DNA from: Bacilli bacterium
GTDB taxonomy: Bacteria; Bacillota_I; Bacilli_A; RF39; UBA660
DNA length: 64,000 bases
NCBI GenBank assembly: GCA_051872635.1
Contig: JBJEEA010000005.1
Location: 77 to 64,076 of the forward strand
Direction of reading: 5' to 3'
The notes below the pieces were generated by a model. That model had not been told where the DNA came from. It worked only from the letters and a program-made list of their open reading frames with translations, and made no database searches. A program made the translations under genes and the position numbers. The number at the start of each line of letters is the position of its first letter. The first letter of the stretch is position 1. This document shows positions 5,254-27,134 of the stretch, in pieces.

Positions 5254-5367
5254 TAATATCACCAATATAATGATACCATTTTTTATATAAAATTGCAAAA
5301 ATGACTTTTAATTTATTAAAAAAAATGATATCATTATATATAGAATAGACTAGTGAAAGGAGTACAT

Positions 5368-6054
5368 ATGAAAAATATTAAATATTTAATAATATCTCTA
5401 TTTCTCCTATGTTTAAATTTTACTTATGTAAAAGCTTCTTGCACTAGTGAAGAGTTATCTAGTTTAAAAGAAGAAATCAAAAAAATAAAAATAACCTATA
5501 AGCATTTAGGAGAAATAATTAATGATGATGGAAGTAAATCATATGATAAATTTTTAGTTACTGCTAAAAATATACCAGAAGGCGTTTACGTTCATTTAAG
5601 TCCAATGACAGAAGAAAATTTTGATGAAAGCACCGATGATTTAAAAATAAAATTAACCACAGGTACATGGTACTATAATATGTATTCATCAAAATGTGAA
5701 ACAGTAGTAGATATCATTACTGTAAAATTACCGCGATTTAATATCTATTCCTTAGACCCACTATGCGAAGGTATTGACAGTGATGATTTCCAATTATGTA
5801 GTAAATACTATGAATATGAATTCAGTCGTGAAACATTTGAAAAAAAAGTTAATGCTTATCGAGAAGAAAATAACATAGGTAAAACTGATAATGATAATAA
5901 TGAAGAAACAGAAAACAATAATATTTTAGAAGTAGTACTAGATTTTATAGAAACTTACAATTTATTCATAGTGGGAGGACTAACTATTGTCTTAATAATA
6001 TTAATAGTTATAATAGTAATTTCTAAGAAAAAGAAAAGAAAAATTTTAGAGTAA
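5368..6054 (+). CDS. Exported type-I membrane protein, first gene of the Tad/T4SS locus
   Basis: RBS GAAAGGAG. Signal peptide MKNIKYLIISLFLLCLNFTYVKA. Four Cys in the mature part. C-terminal TM plus KKKKRK stop-transfer. Confidence 0.6.
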   Translation: MKNIKYLIISLFLLCLNFTYVKASCTSEELSSLKEEIKKIKITYKHLGEIINDDGSKSYDKFLVTAKNIPEGVYVHLSPMTEENFDESTDDLKIKLTTGTWYYNMYSSKCETVVDIITVKLPRFNIYSLDPLCEGIDSDDFQLCSKYYEYEFSRETFEKKVNAYREENNIGKTDNDNNEETENNNILEVVLDFIETYNLFIVGGLTIVLIILIVIIVISKKKKRKILE

Positions 6055-6074
6055 TAAAGAAGGAGGAACTAAAT

Positions 6075-7874
6075 ATGAAAAAAGTAAATCAATATAAATA
6101 TATTTTAATTTTATTTATTTCACTTTTCATATTAATTCCTCAAATAAAAGCTGAAACAATAACTACAACGTATAATAATTATTATTTCTTTCTAGAACCA
6201 TATAAAGTATGTTTTGGAAGCGGTGACGATTGTGATACCATTGTAAATGGGACCACTGCAAATTTAAATGGGAGCCAAAATGAAACTGGCTTTATTAGAT
6301 TAATGTTAACTGCATTTGGAGGTAGTTATGAAAGAATAAATTTACTTGACAATAATCCAAATTCAGAGTGGAGCTTTGAAGATTTTTATATAAAACTAAA
6401 AGAAATTGAAGGTACAAATAAGCAAAACTATAGTTTTTCAGGATTATCATGTTCAACAAAATATATCGTAGAAAATAAAAGTGAAACAGAAGTAAATAGT
6501 TACTTTAGTCATGGCTGTTATAGAAGTGTTGGAGAAAATGATTGGAAAAATCAAATTGAAAATTGGAGTTATTCAAATTCAAATATATTAGCATGTGCTA
6601 GTGTAAATATCGATGTTAATGAAGCAGAAAGCAAATTTGAATATAAAAATTTTGATAATTCAAACGCCTATCTTTATAGCAAAATAGTAAGAAATCCAAC
6701 TACAGTAAATAATATTCAGAATGCTGAATTCAATAATAATATAAATTCTAGCAATTGTGAAGGGAAAATATACCCTATTAAAAGTGAAGACGGAAAGTAT
6801 AGAATATTTTCACCAGTATTATATAAATACACTTATACAACCACTTCTGAAGTATGTAAACCTAACTTAACAAAGCCAAATACTGGAAAATGTAATTCTA
6901 GTGAAAACACACTATCTAGTACTTGTGAAAAGGAAACAATAGAAACAAGTAATTCAAGAGCAGATGTCAAAATTGATCAGAATGGTACAGTATCTAATAT
7001 TCTAACACCAGATAGTGTATATCAAGGTGGTGGATTTAAATTTGGTTTTGTCTACTATAATGAAATAAGCTGGGATTTCGCTGGAGATATATATACAACG
7101 CTTGGTAGTACAGATGCTGCAAAAGAAGAAATAACAGCAGCAATGAAGGAAAAAATACAAAATATTGAAGCCTTTAAAGAAAGTATAATATTAGATAATA
7201 TAACCTTTGGAAATGAAACCATAGATAGTAGCCTTATTCAAAAAAGCTGCCAAAGGAGTGGTGAATTTAATCCAGGAGAAACCGTCACTACAATATGTAC
7301 TTTCTATTTACCAAATTCCGTAGTAGAACCTTATACAGGAAAGATAACTTACAGTACATCAATAGGAACAAACTATGGTATAAATAATAAATATTATACT
7401 CCTTTAACCTATGAAGGAAAATATAATCTAAAAGCTACATTAAAAAACTTAAATGTCTTAATAAATGATGAAAACTGGGTTGGGAATTGGAGCCTAACAT
7501 TTGATGGAAGTAAAGACAGTAGTTGCCAAATAGATGTAGTCAAACGTCTTTATGATAAAGTAGATGATAAATCCTATTCATTTGCCTTTATTTATAGGCC
7601 GATAGATTTAAATGACCCATTTCCAAATAGGAATGCAGGAGTAAATTGGTATGTTTGGTACAACCAAACTAGCAATAAAGAAAGACTAAAAGAAAGCTAT
7701 TCAAATTTACAATATCAAGTTAAATTAGATAATAAAAAAACGTATGCTATTAAAAATTATAATAGTAAGAATGATTACTTAAATTGGGACAGTATAGACG
7801 AAAGTGAAGAAAGTTCATTTATTGATGAATATTTCGATATTTATCGAAAGAACATTGAAGGTGATAATCCATGA
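6075..7874 (+). CDS. Secreted Cys-rich 599-aa protein (candidate adhesin or pilus-associated protein)
   Basis: RBS AGGAGG. Signal peptide ending IKAE. About a dozen Cys spread through the sequence. Stop overlaps the next start (ATGA). Confidence 0.6.
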   Translation: MKKVNQYKYILILFISLFILIPQIKAETITTTYNNYYFFLEPYKVCFGSGDDCDTIVNGTTANLNGSQNETGFIRLMLTAFGGSYERINLLDNNPNSEWSFEDFYIKLKEIEGTNKQNYSFSGLSCSTKYIVENKSETEVNSYFSHGCYRSVGENDWKNQIENWSYSNSNILACASVNIDVNEAESKFEYKNFDNSNAYLYSKIVRNPTTVNNIQNAEFNNNINSSNCEGKIYPIKSEDGKYRIFSPVLYKYTYTTTSEVCKPNLTKPNTGKCNSSENTLSSTCEKETIETSNSRADVKIDQNGTVSNILTPDSVYQGGGFKFGFVYYNEISWDFAGDIYTTLGSTDAAKEEITAAMKEKIQNIEAFKESIILDNITFGNETIDSSLIQKSCQRSGEFNPGETVTTICTFYLPNSVVEPYTGKITYSTSIGTNYGINNKYYTPLTYEGKYNLKATLKNLNVLINDENWVGNWSLTFDGSKDSSCQIDVVKRLYDKVDDKSYSFAFIYRPIDLNDPFPNRNAGVNWYVWYNQTSNKERLKESYSNLQYQVKLDNKKTYAIKNYNSKNDYLNWDSIDESEESSFIDEYFDIYRKNIEGDNP

Positions 7875-8803
7875 AATGGTCATTTGCCTCAGTAGGTTTA
7901 ATCGTCTTTGGATTAATAGGTGTAACAATTATCATGTTGTTTGAAGAACTTACAACAACTAATGAAAATGATTACTATTTATTAAAAGAAGTAACTGAAG
8001 CTGCTATGATTGATTCTGTTGATATAAGTTACTACCGTGAAACAGGAGAACTTAAAATAGTTAGAGAAAAATTTGTTGAAAATTTCACAAGAAGATTTGC
8101 TGAATCAACACTTTTAACAGGAAGTGGTTATACTATTAGTTTCTTTGATATTATTGAAACACCACCCAAAGTATCCGTTACTATAAATACAGGGATAGGT
8201 GAATATACAATTTATGAAGATACAAGTAGCTATAATGTCAATAATCGTCTTGATGCTATCTTAGAGTATATAGGTGAAAATACTTATGAGTCCTCTAATA
8301 GTATCAGAGATCCATATACAGAAAAAACCTATAAGAAGACATATTATAATTTAGTAAGAGTTAAAGACAATAGGGCTACTGTTACTGAACCTGTAAATAT
8401 TCCAGAAAAATTAAATCAAGGACATATTAAAAATGTCAAGATTAGGTCTATTTTAGGTGCTACTGTTGTTGAAGAAGAAAAAGATTTAATGCTTGGTATG
8501 CTTCAAAGAGAAATTGATTGGGCTAAAAGTACTGAAGATGATAATCGCACAGATTTTAATCCAGCATCAGCCAGTACAAGTATTAAAAATTATGCTTCGG
8601 AAATTGAGGTTAACATCTCATCTCCAGAGTGGTATAATTGTAGTGACAACTATAAAAGTAAAGAATGGATGAAAGGTACAGAAGTAGATTGTGGAAAATA
8701 TGATTATTTCATTCATTGGACCGGAGATTTAAATAGTAGTAAAAGTTTTATAGCAGTTAAATATGAAGTAACATGGTCATATGAAGAATATGAATATAAA
8801 TAA
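7871..8803 (+). CDS. N-terminally anchored 310-aa protein, possibly a pseudopilin-like or assembly component
   Basis: Translationally coupled (ATGA). Single N-terminal hydrophobic helix SFASVGLIVFGLIGVTIIMLF followed by E-E. No family recognised. Confidence 0.5.
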   Translation: MKWSFASVGLIVFGLIGVTIIMLFEELTTTNENDYYLLKEVTEAAMIDSVDISYYRETGELKIVREKFVENFTRRFAESTLLTGSGYTISFFDIIETPPKVSVTINTGIGEYTIYEDTSSYNVNNRLDAILEYIGENTYESSNSIRDPYTEKTYKKTYYNLVRVKDNRATVTEPVNIPEKLNQGHIKNVKIRSILGATVVEEEKDLMLGMLQREIDWAKSTEDDNRTDFNPASASTSIKNYASEIEVNISSPEWYNCSDNYKSKEWMKGTEVDCGKYDYFIHWTGDLNSSKSFIAVKYEVTWSYEEYEYK

Positions 8804-8816
8804 AAAGGAGGAAAAT

Positions 8817-9665
8817 ATGAATAATTTAAAAGCTTCGATGAAAAAGTTCTTTGGTAACAAAAATACTGTTACCATATTGGGGGTAATATTATGTTTAGTA
8901 ATATTATATATTGGTTATAATTATCGTATCAACAAAGAAGTTGAATTAGTACAAATACCATATGCTAAAGAGACAATTCAGCCAAGAACATATATAACAA
9001 AAGACATGATTGGTACAATGGAAGTGCCTAAAGCGTTCTTAGAGGGAAATTACTATACGAGTGTAAACAGTATTGTTGGTAAGTATTCTAATTATAATAC
9101 TGTTATAGCTAAAGGAAGTATTTTCTATACTGATTTAGTAGTATCAGAGGCAGATCTTCCTGATTCAGCTTTTCAAGATGTACCCGAAGGATATACAGTA
9201 ATTAACTATCCAGTAAATATATCTAGTACTTATGCTAATTCAATGGCTCCAGGTAGCTATATAAATATTTATTATAAGTCACTTAATGATGCTGGTGAAG
9301 TAATGTTTGGCAAATTTATAAGCAATGTCAAAGTATTAGATGTCAAGGATTCTTCAGGAAGACATGTCTTTGAAAATAGTGAAGAGTCTAGAACTCCTGC
9401 TTATATGTTATTTGCTGTCCCAGAAGAGACGCACTTACTTTTAAGAAAAGCATTGTACTTAGATAAATATGATGTTGAATTATTATTAATACCAAATACA
9501 GCAACTTTAAGTGAAAAAGATAAAGTAACCGTAAGCAGTACCCAAATTGAAGAATTTATAAATTCTAAAACCGTATTTGTATCAGTAGATGATTTACCTA
9601 ACATAGAAGATCAAGTAACTGAAGAAGAAAATAATACAAATGAAAATACAAATACCAATCAGTAA
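8817..9665 (+). CDS. CpaB/RcpC-like Flp pilus assembly protein (SAF-domain type)
   Basis: Start at ATG after AAAGGAGG. N-terminal TM, then a SAF-like stretch (ITKDMIGTMEVPKAFLEGNYYTS...IVGKY..TVIAKGSIFYTDLV). Sits immediately upstream of the Tad ATPase. Confidence 0.55.
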   Translation: MNNLKASMKKFFGNKNTVTILGVILCLVILYIGYNYRINKEVELVQIPYAKETIQPRTYITKDMIGTMEVPKAFLEGNYYTSVNSIVGKYSNYNTVIAKGSIFYTDLVVSEADLPDSAFQDVPEGYTVINYPVNISSTYANSMAPGSYINIYYKSLNDAGEVMFGKFISNVKVLDVKDSSGRHVFENSEESRTPAYMLFAVPEETHLLLRKALYLDKYDVELLLIPNTATLSEKDKVTVSSTQIEEFINSKTVFVSVDDLPNIEDQVTEEENNTNENTNTNQ

Positions 9666-9695
9666 TAAAAATAAGAAATAAAAAGGAGGTAAAAA

Positions 9696-11048
9696 ATGGA
9701 AGCCGAATTTACTCAGGTCGATTTTGGCCCTCTAAAAGCCTTTTTAGATAATGATGATGTCACCGATATATCATATAGCAATGGTGGACAAGTCTGGTTA
9801 AAGACATTGTCTCAAGGCGTATACAGAGTAGAAAATACCGGTATTGATAATGCCCTAATGGAAAAAATAGCTTTTCAGTGTGCCAATTCAATGGGAAAAT
9901 CTTTCAATATGGCTAATCCCTTCCTAGATGCCGAATCAGCAGAACTTCGTATGAATTTTGTTCATGACTCTATTGCTAAAAATGGAATAGCAGTCCTTAT
10001 AAGAAAAACACCGGCTAAAATAAGATTACAAAAAGATAAAATAATTGCCGAAGATTATATTAGATTAAATATTCATGACTTTCTCTTAAAATGTGTTGAA
10101 GGACACTGTAATATTATTGTCAGTGGAGAAACTGGTTCAGGTAAAACAGAGTTCATAAAATATTTAGCAGCTCATACCAAAGAAAATGAAAAACTAATAA
10201 CCATTGAAGACACACTAGAATTACACCTTGATAAAATATTTCCTCATCGTGATATCGTTGCTATGAAAACCAATAACATTGCTTCGTATTCTGATGTTTT
10301 GGTAACTTGTATGCGACAAAATCCTAGATGGATATTACTTTCCGAAGTAAGAAGTGCCGAAGCCGTAATGGCTGTTCGAAATTCTATTTCATCAGGTCAT
10401 AATATTTTATCAACAATACACGCTGATAAAGCTGAATCAATTCCAAACAGAATGTATAGCCTACTTGAAACTAATCAAGATATAGGTCAGTTTCTAACTA
10501 CTATCCATAGATATGTTCAACTAGGAGTTCATATTAAAGCTTACTATAGTCAAAAATATAAAAGATTCCATAGAGAAGTAGCTGAAGTTGTGGAATTCTA
10601 CGTAACAGAAGATAATAAAGCCGAGTACAAAATATTATATAAGAAAACACCAGATGGTAAAGAAACAGTAGCTAATCCTTCTAAATACTTACTTAGTTAT
10701 CTAGAAAGTCAAGGCGTGATAATGCCAAAAGATATTTTAGTAAAAGAAGAATTTACTGATGCTAGTAGCATATCTTTAGAAGAAAGTAAAATAGATGAAA
10801 ATTCTTTTGTTATAGATAACAGTACTATAACTCAAAATATTCCAAATAACTATAGTACAAATAATACCATGAATAATAATATTCCAAATAATTATGCTTC
10901 AAGTAATATTGAGGAGAATCAAGCTCCAATTAATGTAGGAGCAAATATGTCTGTAAATGGTCTAAATAGCAACAATATTCCAAATCCATATGCTAGTGCA
11001 GTAATTCCAAATGCTGTTAATATTACTAGTATAAATAATAATGTCTAA
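9696..11048 (+). CDS. cpaF: CpaF/TadA-type secretion ATPase (VirB11/PulE superfamily) with an Asn-rich C-terminal extension
   Basis: Walker A SGETGSGKT, ITIEDTLEL, RQNPRWILLSEVR, His box LSTIHA. Followed by two T2SS-F-like polytopic proteins. Confidence 0.85.
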   Translation: MEAEFTQVDFGPLKAFLDNDDVTDISYSNGGQVWLKTLSQGVYRVENTGIDNALMEKIAFQCANSMGKSFNMANPFLDAESAELRMNFVHDSIAKNGIAVLIRKTPAKIRLQKDKIIAEDYIRLNIHDFLLKCVEGHCNIIVSGETGSGKTEFIKYLAAHTKENEKLITIEDTLELHLDKIFPHRDIVAMKTNNIASYSDVLVTCMRQNPRWILLSEVRSAEAVMAVRNSISSGHNILSTIHADKAESIPNRMYSLLETNQDIGQFLTTIHRYVQLGVHIKAYYSQKYKRFHREVAEVVEFYVTEDNKAEYKILYKKTPDGKETVANPSKYLLSYLESQGVIMPKDILVKEEFTDASSISLEESKIDENSFVIDNSTITQNIPNNYSTNNTMNNNIPNNYASSNIEENQAPINVGANMSVNGLNSNNIPNPYASAVIPNAVNITSINNNV

Positions 11049-11057
11049 ATAAGGTAG

Positions 11058-11960
11058 GTGATAAAATTGGAAATACTTATAATAGGTCTAATAATAATAT
11101 TTATTGTTTCATATAGAACTAAAAGAGGAGAGTCTATATATAAATTTATCTCTACTGAAGCAATAAATACCTATAAAAAAATAGAGCCTTACTCTTTTAA
11201 AGTAATGCGTGAAAAAGTAAAAGAATTAGGCCTTGAATATACTACAAGACAATACTTATTTCAAATAATTGCTTTTGCTGGGTTAGCCGGTGTTATAAGT
11301 TATTTATACTTTTACAATTTATTTATATCTGCTATATACATAATAGTAGCAGTATCATTTATTCCATATATAACCTACCTAAGATGTAAAAGACAGTATA
11401 GTGAATATATCTTCGAACAAGTTCAAGTATACTGTACTAATACCATTATGGAGTTTGCTACTACTCAAGCTTTTGTCAAATCATTAGAGGGAGTAGCAGA
11501 GTCAGGAGTACTAGAAGAACCACTTCTATCAGATGTTAAGACAATGATAGCCTTATCTTATGAAAAAGGCGATGTCTACGACTCTATTAAGTACATGGAT
11601 ACCAAATATCCTTATTATATGGTAAAAAATATGCACCAATTATTTTTACAAGTAACAAAGGAAGGTGCCAAAGATACTAGTGAGACATTTGAAAATATGC
11701 TATCAGATATAGATATTCTAGTAGAAGGTGTATATAGAGATAGAACAGATAGAGCAACCTTCCATAAACAGTTTTTAACTTTTGGTATAGCATTATATGG
11801 AATGGTAGCCTTAATTCAACTACTGATAGGTAAAGAAACTTATATATCTATGATTGATAATATCTTTATTAGAATAATAGTTCATGCTATCGTTATTATA
11901 AATAGTTGGTTTCTCCTTTCTGGAGAAAAATATTACAACGAGAATGTAGGTGCTGAATAA
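11058..11960 (+). CDS. TadB-like platform protein (T2SS-F-like topology)
   Basis: 300 aa. N-terminal TM, TM pair at ~aa 65-105, ~130-aa cytoplasmic domain, C-terminal TMs. Position right after the ATPase. Start could be TTG at 11067. Confidence 0.55.
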   Translation: MIKLEILIIGLIIIFIVSYRTKRGESIYKFISTEAINTYKKIEPYSFKVMREKVKELGLEYTTRQYLFQIIAFAGLAGVISYLYFYNLFISAIYIIVAVSFIPYITYLRCKRQYSEYIFEQVQVYCTNTIMEFATTQAFVKSLEGVAESGVLEEPLLSDVKTMIALSYEKGDVYDSIKYMDTKYPYYMVKNMHQLFLQVTKEGAKDTSETFENMLSDIDILVEGVYRDRTDRATFHKQFLTFGIALYGMVALIQLLIGKETYISMIDNIFIRIIVHAIVIINSWFLLSGEKYYNENVGAE

Positions 11961-12754
11961 TGATTGAAATGTTAATAGTAGCTATCATAGTAATATACAT
12001 TTTTGTTGTAAATGGAAAAATAGATAAAGATAATATTTTTACTAATAACAACAAATTATGTAATTTATTAAAAGAAAAAGATTACGATTTTCTTCTAATA
12101 GCACGATATGGTGATAAAGTTTATAATCCTAATGAAGTATTCATGAAAAGAATAAAAAATGGTATACTAGTAGCAGCAGCGCTTATCTTCTTATTTCTAT
12201 CACAAATGAGCTATATAACTGTAATAGCAGCATTAGTAGTAGGATATTTTGTGTCAAAAATTCAATATATAAGTTTAAAATTATGGTATAAAAGACATCT
12301 TAATTATATTGAATCATTATTACCATATTATTTAAAAAGTTTAGAAGTACTAGTTCATCATTATACAGTACCAGTAGCATTAGCTAAAAGTATCGACGAT
12401 GCTCCTGAAGTATTCAAACCAGGACTAAAAAGATTAATAGACAAAATAGAAGCAGGTGACTCATCAATTGATCCATATATGGATTTTGCTAATGAATATC
12501 CAGTTAGAGATTCAATGCGTATGATGAGATTATTATATAGATTAGGACTTGGAGAACAAGAAAAAAAGCACCAACAGTTAGTTTCCTTCTCTAAGTCAGT
12601 ATCTTCTCTTCAAGCAAAAGCCAGAGAACAAAAATATCAGGCCAGACTTGATACTATGGAGAGAAAGACCATGATTATGATGTGTGTAACCGGATTTGGT
12701 TCACTCGGATTACTATTGATTTCAATATTTATGTTAATGGGAACAGCAATGTAA
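11960..12754 (+). CDS. TadC-like platform protein (T2SS-F-like topology)
   Basis: Start overlaps the previous stop (TAATG). 264 aa with the same TM / cytoplasmic domain / TM layout as the preceding gene. Confidence 0.55.
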   Translation: MIEMLIVAIIVIYIFVVNGKIDKDNIFTNNNKLCNLLKEKDYDFLLIARYGDKVYNPNEVFMKRIKNGILVAAALIFLFLSQMSYITVIAALVVGYFVSKIQYISLKLWYKRHLNYIESLLPYYLKSLEVLVHHYTVPVALAKSIDDAPEVFKPGLKRLIDKIEAGDSSIDPYMDFANEYPVRDSMRMMRLLYRLGLGEQEKKHQQLVSFSKSVSSLQAKAREQKYQARLDTMERKTMIMMCVTGFGSLGLLLISIFMLMGTAM

Positions 12755-12813
12755 ATATTTGAAATATATAAGAAAAGAATAAAAAAAACATATATGAAAG
12801 AAGGTGAGAAATA

Positions 12814-13035: not shown

Positions 13036-13056
13036 TTAGAGAGTAGGTGATTAATA

Positions 13057-13497: not shown

Positions 13498-13498
13498 C

Positions 13499-14521: not shown

Positions 14522-14526
14522 AATAA

Positions 14527-14555: not shown

Positions 14556-14583
14556 ATAAGTATAATTTGAGGAGGAATAAAAT

Positions 14584-14913: not shown

Positions 14914-14918
14914 TCTAA

Positions 14919-19410: not shown

Positions 19411-19433
19411 TGCTATAAGGAGTGTGATACATA

Positions 19434-19760
19434 GTGAATGGATTTTTAGTACCAGCAAATGCTAAAAGAGGTACTCTTATATTAAATATATTTAGACCAT
19501 TTGATTTAATTATGTTTGGAACAGGAGCACTAGTTACTTTATTATTACTTGTAATTGTTAATTCAAATGATACAGTAATGATATTACTATCCTGTCTTCC
19601 TGTTGCAATAACTGGGTTCCTAGTTGTTCCGGTACCTAACTATCATAATGTTCTATGTGCTATACAAAGTATATTTAAATTTTATTCAGAAAGAAGAAAT
19701 TATATTTGGAAGGGTTGGTGTTTCTATGAAAAATTCGGAAGCGAAGAAGAAAAAAAGTAA
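19434..19760 (+). CDS. VirB3/TcpE/PrgI-like small membrane protein
   Basis: GTG start after AAGGAGTG. 108 aa, two TM helices. Lies immediately upstream of and overlapping VirB4, as in Gram-positive T4SS loci. Confidence 0.45.
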   Translation: MNGFLVPANAKRGTLILNIFRPFDLIMFGTGALVTLLLLVIVNSNDTVMILLSCLPVAITGFLVVPVPNYHNVLCAIQSIFKFYSERRNYIWKGWCFYEKFGSEEEKK

Positions 19761-20289
19761 TTCAAAATATACAGAAGATTGGCTACCAATAAAAGCCATA
19801 TCTAATGGATGTATTCTTTTGGATAATAAAATGAAAGTAACTGGTGTTAAGATAAGACCTAGAAATATTTTTATCTTAGATCAGATAACTCAAGACAATG
19901 TTATTATTGCTCTAAAGAATTTTTACAATACCATTGATTTTGAGTTTTGGCTAATATCTGCAGACCGTCCAGTTGATTTAAATAGTTATTTAGCAAGATT
20001 ACAACTATTATATAATCAAACTCCAAATCCTGCAATTAGGAAACTTATAAATCAAGATATTGATAAAGCCAATAATTTTATGAATAATAATGTTACCGAT
20101 ACAGAGTATTATATATTATTCAAAGAAAAGAATGATGATTTAATCCAAAAAAATCTTCGTACATTAATAACAGGACTTGCTAATTCTGGACTTGAATCTA
20201 CTCAAGTATCAAATGATGATTTAAGAATAATATTAGATAATTTCTTAAATAGTGGAATGACAACTAATTTTGGGACGGTGATTTCGTAA
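19726..20289 (+). CDS. VirB4-family N-terminal domain encoded as a separate 187-aa ORF
   Basis: DWLPIKAISNGCILLDNKMKVTGVKIRPRNIFIL...NFYNTIDFEFWLIS matches the N-terminal region of Gram-positive VirB4 (TcpF/Orf16-like). Start chosen at the internal ATG of the track ORF. Confidence 0.6.
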   Translation: MKNSEAKKKKSNSKYTEDWLPIKAISNGCILLDNKMKVTGVKIRPRNIFILDQITQDNVIIALKNFYNTIDFEFWLISADRPVDLNSYLARLQLLYNQTPNPAIRKLINQDIDKANNFMNNNVTDTEYYILFKEKNDDLIQKNLRTLITGLANSGLESTQVSNDDLRIILDNFLNSGMTTNFGTVIS

Positions 20290-22073
20290 TGAATTTAAAA
20301 AGTGAACTAGCTCCTAAGGGGTTACAATTTAATCCAGCTGATTTTGTTATTAGTGATAGATATGCTACCATTTTAACAGTAATATCATATCCTAGATTTA
20401 TCGGAGCTGGATACCTGGCTAATTTAACTAATATGTCTGGTGTAAAATTAGTAATTAAACATATTCCTCTTCCGTTTTCAGTACTTGCTAAAATGTTAAA
20501 TAAAGAAATAGCCGACTTAAAAAGTAAATATCAACAAGAAAGAGATAGAACTATTCAAGAAAGAATTAGGCAAGATGTAGATTCATTAGAGTACTTTATT
20601 CAGCAGTTTACTGCTTCCCAAGCTAAAACTTTTGATTTTCAAATGCATATTATGGTAACTGCTGATACTAAAGAAGAACTTGAAATGAAGAAAGTTAATC
20701 TTAAGAACTATTTAGATGCTATGGAACTTAGAGCTATACCATTAAGGTTTGAACAAGAAAGAGTTCTAAAATCGATTCTTCCTATTTTTGATAAGCAACC
20801 AATTGAAAGTAGAATAGGTACTCCTATGCCTTCTCCTACTATGGCAGCAATGTATCCATTTATTTTTGATAGTATTAAAGATGATGGCTTATCAACATTA
20901 CTTGGCGTTGATTTTTCTGGTGGTGTAGTATTATTTAATCAATTCTTATATCAGTTAAAGAAAGAAAGCAATAGAAACAATGCTAATATGATTATTTTAG
21001 GTACATCTGGTAGTGGTAAATCCACAGCAGCTAAACTAATATTAAGAAGTCATATTCGAAATGGTTATCAAATAGTAGCAGTTGATCCCGAAGGCGAAAT
21101 AAGTGAAATGACAAGAATGTATGGAGGAGATGTCATAGATCTTGGTAAAGGTGGAGAATATGGTATGGTAAATCCACTTGAAGTAGTAATGGATGCTGAT
21201 GAAAATGAAATTAAAAATGGACTAGGATATACTGTATTAAATAAAACATTGCAGTCATTAAAAGCATTTATGAAATATTATTCACCTGATATTGAAGAGG
21301 ATGTTCTTGCACTATTTAGTGAAGTAGTCCAAGATACATATGCCAGGTTTGGAATAACATTTACTTCAGATTTTTCAAAATTCACTTCAAATGATTATCC
21401 AACTTTTGGAGATGTATATATAACAGTAACTAGTAAGTTAACATCTATGACAGTAAAAACACATGAAAGAGATGTTATGGAAAGACTAGAATTAAAACTA
21501 AGACCATTAGTTAGAGAACTTAAATATTATTTTAATGGTCATACTTCAATTAATACAGAAAGTGATTTCCTCGTGTTCAATATAAAAGAACTTATGAATT
21601 CAGATGTAAATATAAGAAATGCTTTATTATTTAATGTTCTTAAGTTTGCTTGGGGATTATGCTTAAACCCCAATGTTAATACTGTTCTATCAGTTGATGA
21701 AGCACATGTTTTACTTGGCGCAAAAAATGAATTAGGTGCTGAATTTTTAGCCCAAGTTCAAAGAAGAGCAAGAAAATATAACACAGGTACAATAATAATT
21801 ACTCAACAGCCATCAGACTTTGTCGCAGATGGAATATTAATGCATGGTAAAGCCATATTTGATAACTCTTCATATTATTTAGTTATGGGATTAAAGAAAC
21901 AATCTGTAGAAGATTTATCAATGTTAATAGACTTAAACGATAATGAGAAAGAAGGAATAAAAAGATTTAGTCAAGGTGAAGCATTATTTGTATGTGGAAA
22001 TAGAAGAATGCAAATTAATGTAGTTGTAACTGAAGATGAATTAGAGTCATTTGGCTCAGGTGGTGGATTATAG
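20289..22073 (+). CDS. virB4: VirB4-family T4SS ATPase (middle and ATPase domains, 594 aa)
   Basis: ISDRYATILTVISYPRF, Walker A GTSGSGKST, Walker B LSVDEAH, IIITQQPSD. ATG overlaps the previous stop (TAATG) and has its own GGTGA RBS. Confidence 0.85.
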   Translation: MNLKSELAPKGLQFNPADFVISDRYATILTVISYPRFIGAGYLANLTNMSGVKLVIKHIPLPFSVLAKMLNKEIADLKSKYQQERDRTIQERIRQDVDSLEYFIQQFTASQAKTFDFQMHIMVTADTKEELEMKKVNLKNYLDAMELRAIPLRFEQERVLKSILPIFDKQPIESRIGTPMPSPTMAAMYPFIFDSIKDDGLSTLLGVDFSGGVVLFNQFLYQLKKESNRNNANMIILGTSGSGKSTAAKLILRSHIRNGYQIVAVDPEGEISEMTRMYGGDVIDLGKGGEYGMVNPLEVVMDADENEIKNGLGYTVLNKTLQSLKAFMKYYSPDIEEDVLALFSEVVQDTYARFGITFTSDFSKFTSNDYPTFGDVYITVTSKLTSMTVKTHERDVMERLELKLRPLVRELKYYFNGHTSINTESDFLVFNIKELMNSDVNIRNALLFNVLKFAWGLCLNPNVNTVLSVDEAHVLLGAKNELGAEFLAQVQRRARKYNTGTIIITQQPSDFVADGILMHGKAIFDNSSYYLVMGLKKQSVEDLSMLIDLNDNEKEGIKRFSQGEALFVCGNRRMQINVVVTEDELESFGSGGGL

Positions 22074-22097
22074 ACCACAATTAGGTGGTGAGTTAAA

Positions 22098-23690
22098 ATG
22101 AATGAAAAACAACAAGATAGTGAGAACAAGTTATCTAAAAAAGAAAAAGCTGAATCTGCTGGTAAAGATATAGCAGAAATTGGAGCAAAAGCATTAGGAA
22201 CATATTATGGAGGAGAGGCAGGAGGAGCAATAGTAGATGAAGCTCTAAATACTAAAGCCGGTCAAAAAGCAGCAACTAAAGCAGGTAAACGACTAGCTAA
22301 AAATCCAATAGCCAAAAGAGCCCTTGTTAAAGCCGAACCGACGATTTCTCAAAACAAAGAAAATATAAATAGAGCTTTAGGAATGTCATTAGCTAGCAGC
22401 ACCAGTAGTAGTAGTTCAGCAACCAATAGTACAGTAACAACTAGTGATGGGAATGCAGAAGAAAATTCCTCAAGTAATTTGATGACTTCAAACAATTTAT
22501 CTAGTAATGACAATACAGATACTAAAGAAAAAAATAATAAAATAAGTGGTAGTGTAAAGGGAATCTTTAAAAATAAAAGTATAAAATTTAAGTTAATTAC
22601 TATAGGTATTATAGCTGGATTAGTATTTACTATGATTTTTATAGTTGTTTTAATATCACCACTAATGTCTTTAGGAATAATCGATATTGGTGGTGCAAGT
22701 TATGGAAATGGTTCACTATCATATGCAGATTATTCAAGCATTGGATCAAGTACTAGTTATTGGTGGCCGATTGGCGGAAGCAATATATCTATAGTAGATG
22801 GTAAAGAGTTTGCTACTGATTCGCCAACTTGTACTACTATTACCTCTAATTTTGGCTTAAGACAATTAGATGGTAGTAATAATGATCATACCGGTATAGA
22901 TATAGCTTGTCAACATCCAAGCAATCAAGACATTGTTATAGCAGCACTTGATGGAACAGTAATCAATGTAGTTAATGGATACGCTGATGGTAGAAATAAA
23001 TCTGCTGGTTATGGTAATTATGTAAAAATTCAGCATAATAATGGTGATATAACAATATATGGTCACATGTACATTAATAGTATAACCGTAAGTATTGGAG
23101 ATCATGTAAGTCAAGGACAAGTTATTGGTAAGATGGGAAGCAGTGGTAACAGTAAAGGGACTCATTTACATTTTGAAATTAGAGAAAATGGTACAGCAAT
23201 TGATCCAGCTAATCTTATATCATCTAGTAATCCAAGACCTACATCAAGTACAGGTAATTATATTAATGCTAACTCTAATAAAGAATCTATTTGCTTGAGT
23301 TTAAAAGCAAATGGCTTTACAGAAAATGCTACAATTGCTTCACTAACTAATATATACCACGAAAGTGGATTCAAAACAGATGCAGTAGGAGATGGTGGGG
23401 CAAGCTATGGAATATGTCAGTGGTATAACAGTAGAAATATGAATTTAAGAAACGCTTTTCCAAATAATTATGATACTCTAGAAGCACAAATTCAATTTTT
23501 AATATATGAACTTGAAAATAATTATAATAATCTTTACAACAATCTTACTACTAGTAGTTTAAGTGCTAATGAGTTAACTTATAAATTTTGTATAATTTTT
23601 GAAAGCCCAGCTGACACTGAAAATACATGCCGCAAAAGAGCGAGCAATTCTGTTAATTTTACAGATTATGTAAAAAATGGTTGCAAATAA
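22098..23690 (+). CDS. Membrane-anchored bifunctional cell-wall hydrolase (M23 peptidase plus lysozyme-like domain), VirB1 analogue
   Basis: HTGIDIA...GNYVKIQH...GSSGNSKGTHLHFEIR (M23). C-terminal ESGF...SYGICQW...EAQIQFLIYEL (phage-tail-lysozyme-like). One TM at ~aa 165-190. Confidence 0.8.
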   Translation: MNEKQQDSENKLSKKEKAESAGKDIAEIGAKALGTYYGGEAGGAIVDEALNTKAGQKAATKAGKRLAKNPIAKRALVKAEPTISQNKENINRALGMSLASSTSSSSSATNSTVTTSDGNAEENSSSNLMTSNNLSSNDNTDTKEKNNKISGSVKGIFKNKSIKFKLITIGIIAGLVFTMIFIVVLISPLMSLGIIDIGGASYGNGSLSYADYSSIGSSTSYWWPIGGSNISIVDGKEFATDSPTCTTITSNFGLRQLDGSNNDHTGIDIACQHPSNQDIVIAALDGTVINVVNGYADGRNKSAGYGNYVKIQHNNGDITIYGHMYINSITVSIGDHVSQGQVIGKMGSSGNSKGTHLHFEIRENGTAIDPANLISSSNPRPTSSTGNYINANSNKESICLSLKANGFTENATIASLTNIYHESGFKTDAVGDGGASYGICQWYNSRNMNLRNAFPNNYDTLEAQIQFLIYELENNYNNLYNNLTTSSLSANELTYKFCIIFESPADTENTCRKRASNSVNFTDYVKNGCK

Positions 23691-23701
23691 AGGAGATATT
23701 T

Positions 23702-24577
23702 ATGAATAGATTTACTAAAGATGATTTAAAAACTTTAATCGTAGTAATATTAGTATGTACTATATTTGCATCAATAGTTTTAGTAGTTAATATAAAAAGT
23801 AATAGCGAAAAGTTAGAAGCAGTAAATGAATACAACACTTTTTTTTCAACAACTAAATATGTAAATTCCTATTTAAATTATCTATCGAATGGAGATAGCC
23901 AAGCTGTTTATAATTTACTTTTTGATAAATATATAGAAAAATATAACATTACTGAAGATAATGTCTTATCTAAATTAAATAAATATCCTAAAGATATTTC
24001 TATTAGAGTAAAACAAATGGAATATGTTAAAGTAAAAGATAATTATATATACTATATAAATGGAAAAATTATCGAAAATGGCTATGATTATGAAAAAGTA
24101 ATAGATGAAAATTTTGAAATAATTGTAATTAATGATTTTAATAATTTATCAGTAGCTTTATATCCTATAAATGATACCAATTATAAAAAGATAATAGATA
24201 ATATAAAGGAAATAAACATAGTTCAAAATAATACCAATCATATTGTTAAATCAGACCTTATAACTAAAGAACAGATTTGTATTATGTATTTATCTGATTA
24301 CTTAAATGAAATTAAAACTAACATTGACTATTCATATGAAATTCTTAGTCAAAGTATGAAAAAGAAATATACCACTCTAGATTCTTACAAGAAATATATT
24401 AATAGTCAAATTAATAATCTTACCACAGTTGCAGATAAATGCAAAGAGGAAGAAATTGATAAAAAGAGAGTCTATACAGTTGTAGATAAAAATGAAAATG
24501 TTTATTCTTTTACTGAAGAATCTATAATGAATTATAAAGTTGATTTATATTTTAAAGAAGATAAAAATGAACAATAA
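23702..24577 (+). CDS. N-terminally anchored protein in the VirB8/TcpC/ConB position
   Basis: Start at ATG after AAGGAGA. Single N-terminal TM plus a ~250-aa extracytoplasmic part. Assigned from gene order and topology only. Confidence 0.35.
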   Translation: MNRFTKDDLKTLIVVILVCTIFASIVLVVNIKSNSEKLEAVNEYNTFFSTTKYVNSYLNYLSNGDSQAVYNLLFDKYIEKYNITEDNVLSKLNKYPKDISIRVKQMEYVKVKDNYIYYINGKIIENGYDYEKVIDENFEIIVINDFNNLSVALYPINDTNYKKIIDNIKEINIVQNNTNHIVKSDLITKEQICIMYLSDYLNEIKTNIDYSYEILSQSMKKKYTTLDSYKKYINSQINNLTTVADKCKEEEIDKKRVYTVVDKNENVYSFTEESIMNYKVDLYFKEDKNEQ

Positions 24578-24614
24578 ATATAGATGTTAAGTATTGTAAT
24601 ATCTATATTTTTTC
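24577..24614 (+). terminator. Hairpin plus T-run between the VirB8-position gene and the coupling-protein gene
   Basis: AAATATAGAT / ATCTATATTT stem followed by TTTT. Confidence 0.5.
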
Positions 24615-24650
24615 TTTTCCAATTCATATTTCAATTCAAAAATTTATATG

Positions 24651-24679
24651 TTTACAATTCAAGGTATTAATGCTATAAT
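24651..24679 (+). promoter_or_regulatory. Near-consensus promoter for the coupling-protein gene
   Basis: TTTACA, 17-nt spacer, TGcTATAAT (extended -10). Confidence 0.55.
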
Positions 24680-24705
24680 ATTGTTAGTTATTCGGAGGAA
24701 AATAT

Positions 24706-26883
24706 ATGAAAATAAAAGTAGAAAAAAAAGATTTAATAATATTTATAGCTTTTTGCGTTTTCCTATTATATTTATGCGCTATTGGAGTTTTAAATGCCTC
24801 AAGCATAGCAAGTGAAGGTAAATTTTATGGATTTTTACCATTTAAAGCTTTTACTTCTAAATATATTGGTATGACACTATTACTTTTTTTAGCATCAATT
24901 ATTGGTATTTTTTTAGCAGTAAAGTCTTATATTTTCGATCATGAAAAGGGATTTGGACTTTCAATTGGCTCTAAAAAAGAAAAAGGATATTCTAGATGGG
25001 CCACTGATAACGAATTTAAAAAAGGATTAGATATAGTTAATATTAAAGATGAAAAAATTCCAGCAGCAGGTATTGCTTTATATAGTAAAAAAGGAAAAAT
25101 GTGGGTTGATAATGGTGAAGACCACTATTTAGTCATGGGTGCTACTGGTTCTGGTAAAACTGTTATTGTAGCAAAGCCAATGATAAAATTACTTGCCAAA
25201 CATGACGAATCAATGATTTTAACAGATCCTAAGGGTGAATTATATGAAGAAACCGCCGAAATGTTAAAAGCAGAAGGATATAATATAATTACCTTAAATT
25301 TTAGAGATCCAGGTCATGGTAATGCTTGGAACCCTATGAGCTTACCTTATCAATTATATAAAGATGGAAATCAAGATAAAGCAATTGAACTCTTAGATGA
25401 CTTAGCATTAAATATACTATATGATGAAAAAACAACTGGTGATCCCTTTTGGGAAAAAACCGCGGCAGATTATTTTACTGGTTTGGCTTTAGGACTATTT
25501 GAAGATGGTACAGAAGCTCAAATAAACTTAAATAGTTTAAATTTAATGTGTAGCTTAGGTGAAGAAAGATTTGGTGGACCAAATAATAATTATATAAAAG
25601 AGTACTTTAATAGCAAAGATCCATCAAAACCAGCATATATAAATGCATCTGGTACCGTATTTACTGCCGATGAAACAAAGCAAGGTATTATTGCAACTTT
25701 TAAACAAAAAATAAAGCTATTTTCATCACGTGAAAACTTATCAGAAATGCTTGCTTATAGTGACTTTGATATGCGTGAGATAGGACGAAAGAAAACAGCG
25801 GTATTTTTAATCGTTCAAGATGAAAAGAAAACACTTCATCCACTTGCCACTATTTTCATTAAACAGTGTTATGAAACACTTATAGATGTGGCACAGGAAT
25901 GTGGTGGAAAACTGCCGTTTAGAACTAACTTTATTCTAGATGAATTTGCCAATATGCCACCACTTAAAGATGTAACAACAATGGTAACTGCTGCTAGAAG
26001 TAGATTAATTAGGTTCACTTTTATAATACAGAATTTTGCCCAACTTACTAAAGTTTATGGAAAAGAAGATGGGGATACCATACGAGGAAACTGTAATTTA
26101 TTATATTTAATAAGTAGTGAAATAGCAGCCTTGGAAGAAATAAGCAAAATGTGTGGGGAAGTAAAGTCAAAAGAAAAAGAAAAAACCGCTTCAACCCCAC
26201 TAGTTACAGTAAGTGATTTACAGAGATTAAATAAATTTGAAATAATCGTTTTAAGAAGAAGAATGTTCCCATTCAAAACTAGATTTCAGACAGATTTTGA
26301 AGTTGACTGGGGTAGAACTTATCCAAAAGCCACACCACCATCTAGAGAAAGAAGAGAACTAGAACTATTTGATATAAGAGAATTTGTAAAAGCTAAAAAG
26401 CAAGAGAAAATGCAACAAATGACAAATAATATGGGTAGTAGTCCTTTTATGAATAGTCCTTTTGGAGGATCTGTATCTCCATTTGGAGTTTCAAATCCAT
26501 TTATTCAACCTAGTCCATTTAGTTCTTCTTCTCCAGAGTTTATGGGAGGTCCTAAATCTTCTAACAATAGTGAAAATGAAACTTTTAATATTGATGAATT
26601 AGTCAAGAAAATAGATGCTAAAATAGCAGAAATAGAAAAAGAAGAAGCCGAAGAAAATCAGAAAAACAGTCTTTCATTTAATGAATTAATAAAACCACAA
26701 AACAATGAAAAAGAAAACATTGCTTTTGATGAAAAATCAAATGATAATACTGTTGTGATTAATAATCAAGTCGAAGAAACTTTATCTAATAAAGAAAATG
26801 AAGAAGATAAAAATAGTAGCTCTTTATATGAAGATGATACTGATGATGACGCCTTCTTTGATGATTTCTTTAGTGATGATTAA
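24706..26883 (+). CDS. virD4: VirD4/TraG-family type IV coupling protein (T4CP)
   Basis: Two N-terminal TMs, Walker A MGATGSGKT, Walker B FILDEFANMPP, IQNFAQL. Long low-complexity C-terminal tail. Confidence 0.85.
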   Translation: MKIKVEKKDLIIFIAFCVFLLYLCAIGVLNASSIASEGKFYGFLPFKAFTSKYIGMTLLLFLASIIGIFLAVKSYIFDHEKGFGLSIGSKKEKGYSRWATDNEFKKGLDIVNIKDEKIPAAGIALYSKKGKMWVDNGEDHYLVMGATGSGKTVIVAKPMIKLLAKHDESMILTDPKGELYEETAEMLKAEGYNIITLNFRDPGHGNAWNPMSLPYQLYKDGNQDKAIELLDDLALNILYDEKTTGDPFWEKTAADYFTGLALGLFEDGTEAQINLNSLNLMCSLGEERFGGPNNNYIKEYFNSKDPSKPAYINASGTVFTADETKQGIIATFKQKIKLFSSRENLSEMLAYSDFDMREIGRKKTAVFLIVQDEKKTLHPLATIFIKQCYETLIDVAQECGGKLPFRTNFILDEFANMPPLKDVTTMVTAARSRLIRFTFIIQNFAQLTKVYGKEDGDTIRGNCNLLYLISSEIAALEEISKMCGEVKSKEKEKTASTPLVTVSDLQRLNKFEIIVLRRRMFPFKTRFQTDFEVDWGRTYPKATPPSRERRELELFDIREFVKAKKQEKMQQMTNNMGSSPFMNSPFGGSVSPFGVSNPFIQPSPFSSSSPEFMGGPKSSNNSENETFNIDELVKKIDAKIAEIEKEEAEENQKNSLSFNELIKPQNNEKENIAFDEKSNDNTVVINNQVEETLSNKENEEDKNSSSLYEDDTDDDAFFDDFFSDD

Positions 26884-26890
26884 TAAATAT

Positions 26891-26924
26891 AAAGATATAG
26901 TAAAAAAATTTTACTATATCTTTT
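26891..26924 (+). terminator. Rho-independent terminator closing the T4SS module
   Basis: AAAGATATAGTAAAA / TTTTACTATATCTTT stem. Confidence 0.6.
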
Positions 26925-27134
26925 ACTTTATATTATTTGATAAAAAAACAAAACATATAAATTAAAAAATATTATAATCAATTATACAATATAAACTAAA
27001 TGTAGTACTTCCTTTAAATATAACATTTTTATTATAGGACAATAGTTTAAAATATTATTAAAATATAAAGACTTATTGTGTTTATTAACTTTTCACATTT
27101 AAAATAAATGTATATATTATAGTGAGGTGTAATT

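Follow-up and report, generated by a model that had tools for sequence, protein, structure and literature searches.

Nearly all of the known functions of type IV secretion systems (T4SSs) in Gram-positive bacteria consist in moving mobile DNA, the 89K island of S. suis and the Patescibacteria being the exceptions named in a 2025 review (PMC12857230). In the Patescibacteria, a chromosomal and mostly relaxase-less T4SS derived from the MPF_FATA type is essential for epibiotic growth and independent of ComEC (PMC12102498; PMC12857230). The tra regions of plasmids pAW63 and pXO2 carry VirD4, VirB4 and 'VirB11' ATPases, and pBMB67 is listed as a putative conjugative plasmid (PMC9673590). The Mycoplasma integrative and conjugative elements (ICEs; the Mycoplasma type is called MICE) move chromosomal DNA, and no MICE relaxase has been identified, the current model simply assuming one (PMC6030558). 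Here we describe a locus in a 64,000-nucleotide stretch of DNA, called the window below, from a Bacilli bacterium (GTDB lineage Bacillota_I; Bacilli_A; RF39; UBA660; contig JBJEEA010000005.1, positions 77 to 64,076). At 5353-26883 of the window, this locus encodes VirB1-, B2-, B3-, B4-, B6- and B8-like proteins and VirD4, joined to a Tad-like pilus module.

The window is a segment of a Firmicute chromosome with 23-32% G+C, in which an RNase P class B RNA and tmRNA are present. The locus comprises 19-20 genes, all on the + strand and with barely any gaps between them, and was divided by profile searches into two modules, at 5353-14913 and 15451-26883. Profile matches of VirB4, VirD4, VirB6, a cell-wall hydrolase and a T2SSE ATPase bore out the preliminary description of the region as a T4SS with a coupling protein, and the canonical monoderm set (VirB1, B2, B3, B4, B6, B8, D4) is complete once the protein o18 is counted as VirB8-like. 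The best explanation is that the locus descends from a Gram-positive conjugation module (an MPF_FATA-like T4SS plus a Tad-like pilus), has become fixed in the chromosome, is inherited vertically and now serves its host, with the relaxase and any integration or replication genes lost from this copy. That it is a functional, domesticated and non-mobile system is highly probable.

All 57 open reading frames (ORFs) of at least 80 aa across the window were scanned against Pfam, and the NCBIfam scan covered the products of the locus and of ssb as well as ten ORFs that had given no hit. No relaxase, tyrosine or serine recombinase, DDE transposase, Rep protein or Peptidase_A24 was found among the 57 ORFs in these scans, in which many ORFs gave no family match of any kind. 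This agrees with the preliminary description, which had seen none of these genes in the 64 kb, and the hypothetical proteins that it left as possible relaxases or recombinases matched no such profile in Pfam or NCBIfam. A relaxase hidden among the hypothetical proteins of the locus was ruled out for o10, whose modelled fold is of the MinD/ParA type and not that of a relaxase, Rep protein or recombinase. When the MobP3 relaxase of pBMB67 was searched by tblastn against all six frames of the window for a remnant, the best match had E = 0.43. ORFs of relatives that have no homolog in the window were clustered and their 96 representatives pooled for a family scan, and among the matches listed (25 of 97 families) all were to housekeeping families. 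Ten representatives, among them those of five of the six clusters that recur most, were scanned singly and proved to be alternative hydrolases, an Ig-like protein, Obg, MurJ and similar proteins but no relaxase or integrase, singletons not being exhaustively covered. An A24 peptidase was found neither among the recurrent in-block genes of relatives that were scanned nor next to the Tad module in two plasmid regions.

The genes on either side of the locus are housekeeping genes. The window begins with the end of an rrn operon (the 23S end and 5S, 1-424), about 5 kb from the locus. The left flank includes queH and a DUF6568 gene and ends with trmL (4298-4807) and a thioredoxin gene (trx, 4810-5298, - strand), which forms the left border. 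On the right, a single-domain rhodanese gene (27135-27410, + strand; PF00581 1.7e-13) is followed by yunB (27446), sufB (28259), an amidase gene, ssb, asnS, PFOR, the RNase P RNA and recA. Both flanks are those named in the preliminary description, which had also seen no direct repeats at the borders and no compositional break by eye. Those two observations held as well: the search for repeats around the borders formed by the trx and rhodanese genes returned AT-rich chance matches only, the third-position G+C content (GC3) was 0.169 in the locus against 0.157 elsewhere with a codon-usage distance of p ~0.17, and no tetranucleotide outlier window was found across the locus. Because the flanks consist of housekeeping genes and are syntenic in relatives, a relaxase or integrase module just outside the window is very unlikely. 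The rhodanese gene is a kept neighbour 3' of VirD4, and its membership in the system is uncertain.

More than 7,266 VirB4 homologs were retrieved below 1e-10, the top 120 cluster representatives being 83-95% identical, and 564 matching stretches were confirmed in contigs taken at one genome per species. The best 80 of the 564 stretches came from uncultured gut metagenome-assembled genomes labelled Bacilli, Tenericutes, Bacillales, CAG:321, Acholeplasma sp. CAG:878 and Candidatus Onthousia; the set contains one closed genome (L044), which is small (1.52 Mb). These host labels fit uncultured orders related to Mycoplasmatales (RFN20, RF39, ML615J-28), some of them sporulating (PMC10868615). A few probably mis-binned contigs aside, all 564 belonged to uncultured gut genomes labelled Bacilli or 'Tenericutes'. 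Locus contigs also occurred in bins named Methanobacteriaceae, Oribacterium and Muribaculaceae (L018, L019, L029, L049, L060, L079), which are most likely a case of binning contamination and not true hosts. A metagenome scan with the hypervariable protein o2 returned no relatives, and the secretion ATPase of the locus was used as the query instead.

Window proteins were mapped on 160 loci of relatives. The order o4, ATPase, TadB-like, TadC-like, pilin, TadE-like, o10, VirB2-like, o12, VirB6, VirB3, VirB4N, VirB4, hydrolase, o18, VirD4 and rhodanese was kept down to 72% VirB4 identity, and the rhodanese gene followed VirD4 in most loci, down to 73%. In loci anchored on VirB4, the Tad genes lay upstream in 40 of 55 and VirD4 downstream in 53 of 63; of 42 loci anchored on TadA, 41 had T4SS genes downstream of the ATPase. 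Closer relatives had the left flank (w505, w2115, queH, DUF6568, trmL, trx) in 45 of 46 loci, and the right flank from rhodanese through yunB, sufB and amidase to ssb was retained in L002, L004, L007 and L010. Many of the relatives' contigs stop where the window has its rrn operon, and in more distant species the flanks consist of other housekeeping genes. The comparison of orthologous intervals proposed in the preliminary description found both flanks conserved in closer relatives. Such a pattern is that of an ancient, vertically inherited chromosomal locus and not of an inserting element.

In the closest species VirB4 is 93-95% identical, compared with 87-91% for SufB, 79-86% for TrmL, 74-82% for QueH and 85% for AsnRS in the same loci. 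In more distant loci VirB4 is 82-85% identical, AsnRS 68-78% and SufB 71%. The exposed parts o1, o2, o3, o12 and VirB6, on the other hand, are mostly 27-54% identical. Conserved motors combined with surfaces that evolve fast indicate a functioning machine with diversifying pressure on its exterior, and exclude a decaying remnant. A non-functional remnant of an integrated ICE or plasmid would be in keeping with the absence of mobility genes from the window. However, all core genes are intact full-length ORFs, the gene order persists to the distances given above, codon usage is native, and not only VirB4 but also the TadB-like protein is more conserved than the housekeeping genes (84-92% in closer, TadA-anchored relatives; 55-69% in more distant ones). 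Judged by this pattern of conservation, decay is effectively refuted, and we give it hardly any credence. The preliminary description had left open whether the locus was a domesticated or a decayed ICE: its clade-wide occurrence, synteny, fixed flanks, native composition and strong constraint speak for the former, whereas the intact T4SS core and the level of VirB4 identity speak against the latter.

The origin of the locus is indicated by plasmids. The nearest plasmid VirB4s, ~29-30% identical, belong to a Mycoplasmatota plasmid, to Spiroplasma citri plasmids and to B. thuringiensis plasmids of 56-72 kb. Two plasmid contexts were inspected, pBMB67 and the Mycoplasmatota plasmid, and both carry T4SS and Tad modules; because plasmids carry the same pair of modules, the hybrid of T4SS and Tad is a known, little-studied conjugation module. 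On pBMB67 the order is MobP3 relaxase, VirD4, a hypothetical protein, TrbL, PrgI, a hypothetical protein and VirB4, followed further on by SAF, an AAA ATPase, a T2SSE ATPase, two hypothetical proteins and small proteins (one with DUF4320). The window proteins o4, ATPase, both membrane proteins, VirB3, VirB4N, VirB4 and VirD4 match pBMB67 gene by gene. Like the window, the tra regions of the pBMB67/pAW63-pXO2 type in the B. cereus group have VirD4, TrbL, PrgI, a split VirB4 N-terminal ORF and VirB4, and the pilus half of pBMB67 comprises SAF/CpaB, one AAA and one T2SSE ATPase, a pair of membrane proteins and small proteins resembling pilins, again with no A24 peptidase beside it. pBMB67 differs in being plasmid-borne, in having the MobP3 relaxase directly upstream of VirD4, partition genes and another order of modules, in a VirB4 of ~29% identity and in the lack of the FFDDFF motif described below for VirD4, whereas the window copy is chromosomal, relaxase-less and clade-wide. 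What sets the window apart is thus the absence of the VirD4-adjacent relaxase found on pBMB67, together with chromosomal fixation.

In NCBIfam, the families that come nearest to the T4SS half are Mbov_0395, Mbov_0396 and Mbov_0397 of Mycoplasma ICEs, with scores under their cutoffs, an affinity that fits the phylogenetic neighbourhood of the host. The same architecture on conjugative plasmids with a VirD4-adjacent relaxase, the nearness of the T4SS half to Mollicutes ICE families and the conservation in many species all go beyond the preliminary description. A 98-kb Mycoplasmatota plasmid (L082, CP074574.1) carries a T4SS and a canonical Flp/Tad module and is typed by PLSDB/MOB-suite as non-mobilizable, with no recognised relaxase; T4SSs of this lineage may use an unrecognised DNA-processing protein.

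The T4SS proteins themselves were identified one by one. The VirB2-like pilin (14584-14913), of 109 aa and with two transmembrane (TM) helices, is well conserved in all loci; its orthologs match PF18895 (T4SS_pilin), and there is a weak match to the NCBIfam pilin-like family Mbov_0395. Module 2 begins with o12 (15451-17286), a secreted protein of 611 aa with a C-terminal VirB2-like (T4SS_pilin) domain (PF18895 5.4e-4, residues 528-590) and a hypervariable N-terminal part, which is 27-53% identical in most relatives with an outlier at 79% (L105). The polytopic VirB6/TrbL-like channel protein (17311-19410) has a long C-terminal extension and matches PF19597 (TrbL_4) with 31 bits at a cutoff of 27, as well as the NCBIfam families MMCAP2_0566 (2.5e-10) and Mbov_0396 (9.3e-8). 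It is followed by a small VirB3-like (PrgI-family) membrane protein (19434-19760; jackhmmer 1.7e-18 to the PrgI-family protein of pBMB67), which matches Pfam TcpE weakly (0.0089). The N-terminal domain of VirB4 forms a TraC-like ORF of its own (19726-20289; PF26593), with a one-base overlap with the start of the VirB4 ATPase (20289-22073; PF19044 7.9e-14; AAA_10; PDB 4ag5, VirB4-like, 1.5e-55; NCBIfam VirB4_plasma 2e-105). On an 894-residue Mycoplasma VirB4 model, the TraC-like ORF matches 87-277 and the VirB4 ORF 294-893. Since the two match consecutive parts of one model, VirB4 is split into two translationally coupled ORFs, and the split is kept in all loci and in pBMB67.

Next comes a VirB1-type cell-wall hydrolase (22098-23690) combining an M23 peptidase (PF01551 5e-27) with a lysozyme-like domain (PF18013 Phage_lysozyme2 4.2e-24). 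This gene is swapped across species, a protein of 1000 aa with PPIase, SpoIID and CHAP domains taking its place in 42 loci (e.g. L080:11812-14811) and NlpC/P60 elsewhere (e.g. L045:11808-13427). The adjacent o18 (23702-24577) is probably VirB8-like, with a TM helix and two NTF2-like domains in an AlphaFold2 (AF2) model of pLDDT 91; its top Foldseek matches were the VirB8-like OrfG of ICESt3 (3.9e-3) and TcpC (3ub1), with weak statistics, none being below 1e-3.

The VirD4-type coupling protein (24706-26883; PF02534 4.7e-51; TraG-D_C 5.9e-21) scores above the curated cutoff for conjugative coupling proteins of the CD1115 family (NF045973, 286.6 bits versus 250). Its last 12 residues (26845-26880) form an acidic-aromatic tail, DDxFFDDFFxD(D/E), called invariant; the FFDDFF tail was present in 54 of the 57 full-length VirD4 orthologs, although it is preceded by ~150 hypervariable residues. 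Neither the VirD4 of pBMB67 nor any other part of the window was found to contain the motif. It is specific to the clade, a new feature of the coupling protein, and is best read as the docking site for a conserved partner. The tail recalls that of F TraD, which binds TraM, and the acidic tail of SSB.

These properties of VirD4 bear on the reading in which the T4SS is still mobile and serves in trans a relaxase and oriT (perhaps with an integrase) encoded elsewhere, mobilising an unlinked element or the chromosome by relaxase-dependent conjugation. A coupling protein over the curated cutoff of a conjugative family speaks for this reading, and the conserved tail could dock a relaxosome accessory protein, for which F TraD and TraM provide the comparison. 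Moreover, the relaxase of pBMB67 is a separate gene beside VirD4 and could have relocated, and the relaxase searches in this genome were confined to the 64-kb window. Against this stand the housekeeping flanks of 5 kb and 37 kb, syntenic in relatives and with nothing mobile adjacent, as well as fixation at one site across many species and very strong purifying selection, both of which are atypical for the helper of a selfish element. Service in trans is accordingly considered improbable, and the locus is treated below as domesticated and non-mobile.

A terminator-like AT-rich hairpin with a T-run (14920-14956, + strand), read from the sequence, lies directly 3' of the VirB2-like gene, and a palindrome with a 17-bp stem (15353-15391, no strand) is followed by TGtTATAAT (-10-like) and a ribosome-binding site ahead of o12. 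At least two transcription units are suggested by the hairpin after the VirB2-like gene and the palindrome with its -10-like sequence before o12, and the palindrome may mark the start of the second. The ~400 bp between the two structures (14957-15352), near the module boundary, are non-coding and had no Rfam match. In relatives, insertions of variable length occur on either side of the VirB2-like gene, at the module boundary.

Module 1 opens with o1 (5353-6054), the first gene of the locus, whose product has a signal peptide and a C-terminal TM anchor and is 36-53% identical in relatives. The product of o2 (6075-7874), secreted, of 599 aa and hypervariable (relatives 27-46% identical versus 85-95% for the motor proteins), had no family match in the Pfam/NCBIfam scans and is a candidate pilus-associated adhesin. 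With an N-terminal TM helix and DUF5411 (PF17424 6.9e-50), o3 (7871-8803; relatives 40-64% identical) is a candidate minor pilin or pseudopilin. The fourth protein, o4 (8781-9665), is a CpaB/RcpC-like SAF-domain protein by its similarity to the SAF domain-containing protein of pBMB67 (phmmer 2.5e-25, jackhmmer 1.5e-76), and matches TIGR03177 (CpaB) weakly (1.4e-3). In L028 and L055, o1-o4 relocate jointly to a position after VirD4.

The secretion ATPase (9696-11048; PF00437 T2SSE 2.5e-26) is CpaF/TadA-like and also VirB11-like, with an Asn-rich C-terminal tail. Its best PDB matches were CpaF (1.8e-19) and VirB11 (2e-15) with FlaI close behind, its NCBIfam scores were 117 bits for VirB11 and 105 bits for TadA, both under cutoff, and its match to the T2SSE ATPase of pBMB67 was 6e-35. 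By these scores it appears to be equidistant from CpaF and VirB11. The low-complexity tail derives partly from a 42-nt tandem duplication (10818-10901) and varies between relatives, as several metagenome matches span residues 1-383 only. Two polytopic platform proteins follow, a TadB-like one (11058-11960; jackhmmer 4e-56 to pBMB67 31826), so called by position and paralogy only, and its TadC-like paralog (11960-12754; jackhmmer 5e-59 to pBMB67 32916). The two are related to each other by hhalign (E 8.6e-5), and the TadB-like protein to the one that follows CpaF on the Mycoplasmatota plasmid (5.9e-5); their membership in T2SSF found no support in Pfam, in PDB profile searches or in hhalign to an annotated T2SSF protein.

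The small Flp-like pilin (12814-13035) has 73 aa, a leader MKEATG/E (an unbracketed slash marks the cleavage position) and a weak Pilin_N match. Its N-terminus is kept as MK(E/A)A(T/S)G/E(L/V)(N/S)(M/L)TV in 40 orthologs, followed by a hydrophobic helix. In the window sequence MKEATG/ELNMTV, TV stands in place of the EY of the class III signal G/xxxxEY, and the canonical Flp signal G/xxxxEY is present in the equivalent proteins of the Mycoplasmatota plasmid. The TadE-like pseudopilin (13057-13497) has the leader M(R/K)(D/E)A.G/G and a hydrophobic helix in ~50 orthologs. As the small pilin and the TadE-like protein share this type of leader, cleavage after Gly by a prepilin-type peptidase is implied, and this peptidase is likely encoded elsewhere in the genome, as the preliminary description had suggested. 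The next protein, o10 (13499-14521; 340 aa), is TadZ/CpaE-like, with a receiver-like domain and a degenerate ParA/MinD-like NTPase domain; no other soluble protein of the locus is of unknown function. Its AF2 model had a pLDDT of 69 and, as top Foldseek matches, the MinD/ParA-type HypB (1.2e-5) and then ParA, FlhG and McdA.

Variable genes were noted beside and within the locus of relatives. The segment between o10 and the VirB2-like gene measures 62 bp in the window and holds up to ~6 kb of cassette genes in relatives. One such cassette (L093:14828-20126; also in L095, L098, L104 and L106), between the TadZ-like and VirB2-like genes, encodes a coiled-coil protein, a membrane protein, a protein with an HExxH motif and three paralogs in tandem, which diverge in their Gly/Ser-rich N-termini but share a conserved C-terminal domain of ~150 aa; these proteins are candidate substrates. 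At 54229-61936 of the window lie an fn3 surface protein of 1858 aa and two ORFs of unknown function (59824-61203 and 61169-61936). Homologs of the fn3 protein and of the two following ORFs stand directly upstream of the T4SS block in L017, L020, L021 and L022, an adjacency that could be a functional link or a rearrangement only.

Two further features of the window lie outside the locus. A SipW-type (archaeal-type) signal peptidase I is encoded at 45766-46437 (TIGR02228, 96 bits versus a cutoff of 51.85) and is no prepilin peptidase. It heads a cluster of five genes on the + strand (45766-50313), the other members being unknown proteins, just downstream of the tmRNA (45293-45648, - strand) and a tRNA; the cluster could represent an operon for a TasA-like fibre or else a small island. 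The stand-alone SSB of 133 aa (31034-31435), followed by a helix-turn-helix gene, is without the usual acidic C-terminal tail, and the closest relatives (L002, L004, L007 and L010) keep this SSB at the same place, ~4 kb downstream of the locus.

What the domesticated machine carries was approached through its relatives. We lean towards DNA because all characterised relatives move DNA and three precedents do so with no recognised relaxase. These are Mycoplasma chromosomal transfer (PMC12857230, PMC6030558), pXO16, of which relaxase and oriT are unidentified (PMC9673590), and archaeal Ups pili with Ced import, where a type IV filament is paired with a T4SS-like importer (PMC9905601, PMC11868833). 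DNA as the cargo is held tentatively, with slightly less than even confidence. The alternative is a machine equally domesticated, whose pilus attaches to a partner bacterium or to host mucosa and whose T4SS moves proteins, toxins or other molecules, as has been proposed likewise for the essential T4SS of the Patescibacteria and for the S. suis 89K effector system. The absence of a relaxase from the window and from the relatives' blocks that were scanned, a VirB4 more conserved than housekeeping genes, the hypervariable surface parts, the cassettes of relatives (one with three tandem paralogs and an HExxH protein) and the small size of the sole closed genome in an uncultured lineage would all suit such a function, as would VirB2-like pilins of the kind present in the Patescibacteria (PMC12102498; PMC12857230). 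Yet no recognisable effector, toxin or immunity gene was found in the locus of the window, the variable cassette is absent from it, and the nearest homologs of known function all move DNA. A non-DNA cargo is the main rival reading, somewhat less probable than DNA. The non-conjugative use suggested in the preliminary description is strengthened by the Patescibacteria precedent (PMC12102498).

Several observations weigh against the favoured interpretation of a domesticated pilus and T4SS that exchanges DNA. Conservation above that of SufB exceeds what would be expected for occasional DNA exchange and resembles the growth-essential T4SS of the Patescibacteria, which is unrelated to ComEC-dependent competence (PMC12857230). 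The fast-evolving surface parts and the variable cassettes of relatives would fit effector delivery or host interaction as well. DNA is proposed as the cargo by analogy and from relatives, with corresponding reserve. Formal membership of the pilus module in the Tad family is incomplete, the platform proteins and the pilin not being formally established as Tad family members. Finally, one subclade (L013, L017, L020-L023) has no VirD4 within 10 kb of VirB4 and no Tad genes adjoining.

Under the favoured interpretation, the locus could operate as follows. The CpaB-like protein, CpaF-like ATPase, TadB/C-like proteins, Flp-like pilin, TadE-like protein and TadZ-like NTPase, all present in the first operon, would build a thin fibre, its pilins being cut by a prepilin-type peptidase encoded elsewhere, as their shared leader suggests. 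The hypervariable o1, o2 and o3 may give the fibre its partner specificity, so that two cells are drawn together. The VirB2-like pilin, the pilin-fusion protein, VirB6, VirB3, the split VirB4, the hydrolase and the VirB8-like protein, whose genes would form the second operon, could then make up a channel spanning the wall. VirD4 would load the cargo into this channel, with its FFDDFF tail presumably docking a conserved cytoplasmic partner. By analogy with Mycoplasma chromosomal transfer and with Ups/Ced, the cargo would most likely be DNA passing between cells of the clade, either independently of a relaxase or by means of an unlinked or unrecognised nickase.

A complete T4SS with a Tad-like pilus is thus a fixed chromosomal trait of many abundant uncultured bacteria of the human and animal gut, with no linked relaxase and under very strong constraint. 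Should the system exchange DNA, it would be a bacterial counterpart of Ups/Ced and genes would flow in the gut by a major route so far overlooked; if another cargo is true, a lifestyle machine of the Patescibacteria type would extend to the Bacillota. As a relaxase-bearing plasmid relative is available for comparison, the step from plasmid module to host organelle is visible, and concrete handles are offered by the tail motif of VirD4, the class III-type leader of the pilins and the hypervariable surface proteins. It is conceivable, although we think it unlikely, that the whole radiation of uncultured small-genome gut Bacilli near Mycoplasmatales depends on this domesticated pilus and T4SS organelle for obligate cell-cell exchange and that the FFDDFF tail docks a new, clade-specific cargo adaptor. 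Such an organelle would be the Bacillota counterpart of the essential Patescibacteria T4SS, and obligate exchange could explain both the conservation of VirB4 above SufB and the resistance to cultivation.

In the literature searched, no description of a T4SS-plus-Tad system in this lineage was found. The sporulation 'feeding tube' (SpoIIIA/SpoIIQ) was considered for the M23 domain, the T2SSE ATPase and the nearby yunB and was ruled out, as VirB4, VirB6 and VirD4 identify a T4SS. The Tad-like cluster of TANB77 is also chromosomal and has CpaB, a ParA-like protein, CpaF, TadB/C and pilins across an uncultured order of gut Firmicutes, but it belongs to Clostridia, has TadB and TadC fused, has seven larger pilins and comes with no reported T4SS (PMC11680825); identity with this pilus cluster was ruled out by architecture and taxonomic class. 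The ComB system of H. pylori likewise is a chromosomal, relaxase-less T4SS serving its host; it has no VirD4 and is of the diderm type, whereas the window keeps a highly conserved VirD4.

Among published systems, the nearest parallels are the archaeal Ups/Ced system and the relaxase-less chromosomal T4SS of the Patescibacteria. The archaeal Ups and Ced loci are separate from each other. In outline they resemble the window, with a type IV-filament pilus for aggregation and a VirB4-like ATPase, a VirB6-like protein and VirB2-like pilins, and they are chromosomal, relaxase-free and used by the host for DNA exchange (PMC9905601, PMC11868833). Ced differs in being archaeal and in that its listed parts, CedA, CedA1, CedA2 and CedB, are without a VirD4-type coupling protein (PMC11868833). 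Its homology to the window is remote (CedD, 5.3e-11, in the P-loop region). Closer by profile are the MICE: in NCBIfam, VirB4, VirB6 and the pilin-like protein match best to Mbov_0397, Mbov_0396 and Mbov_0395, respectively, with the gene order preserved, and the host lineage of the window is related to Mycoplasmatales (PMC10868615). The window VirB4 nevertheless stays under the curated MICE cutoff (353 versus 590 bits), and MICE are mobile by means of a DDE recombinase (CDS22), have many insertion sites and are without VirB1- or VirB8-like parts or a Tad module. In the window, no DDE gene is present, but a wall hydrolase and a VirB8-like protein are encoded.

The T4SS of the Patescibacteria shares with the window the monoderm MPF_FATA-type VirB1, B3, B4, B6, B8 and D4 and VirB2-like pilins of PF18895 (PMC12102498; PMC12857230). 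It too is chromosomal and clade-wide, lacks a relaxase in most clusters and co-occurs with a type IV-filament pilus, and its hosts are uncultured like those of the window, with reduced genomes. In being chromosomal, clade-wide, without a linked relaxase and provided with VirB2-like pilins, the window locus agrees with the type as defined in PMC12102498. The Patescibacteria differ in belonging to another phylum and in having ~six VirB2 paralogs in an array and a separate type IV pilus locus, whereas the window has one small VirB2-like protein and one fusion protein, and its T4SS and Tad-like module are physically joined. The Patescibacteria T4SS has been shown to be essential; the window system is known here from its sequence. 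As its hosts are Bacillota, the window VirB4 is unlikely to fall within the monophyletic Patescibacteria clade. A relaxase-less, host-fixed monoderm T4SS is therefore known from the Patescibacteria; what is new is such a system in Bacillota, joined to a Tad-like pilus, with relaxase-bearing plasmid relatives and a clade-specific tail on its coupling protein.

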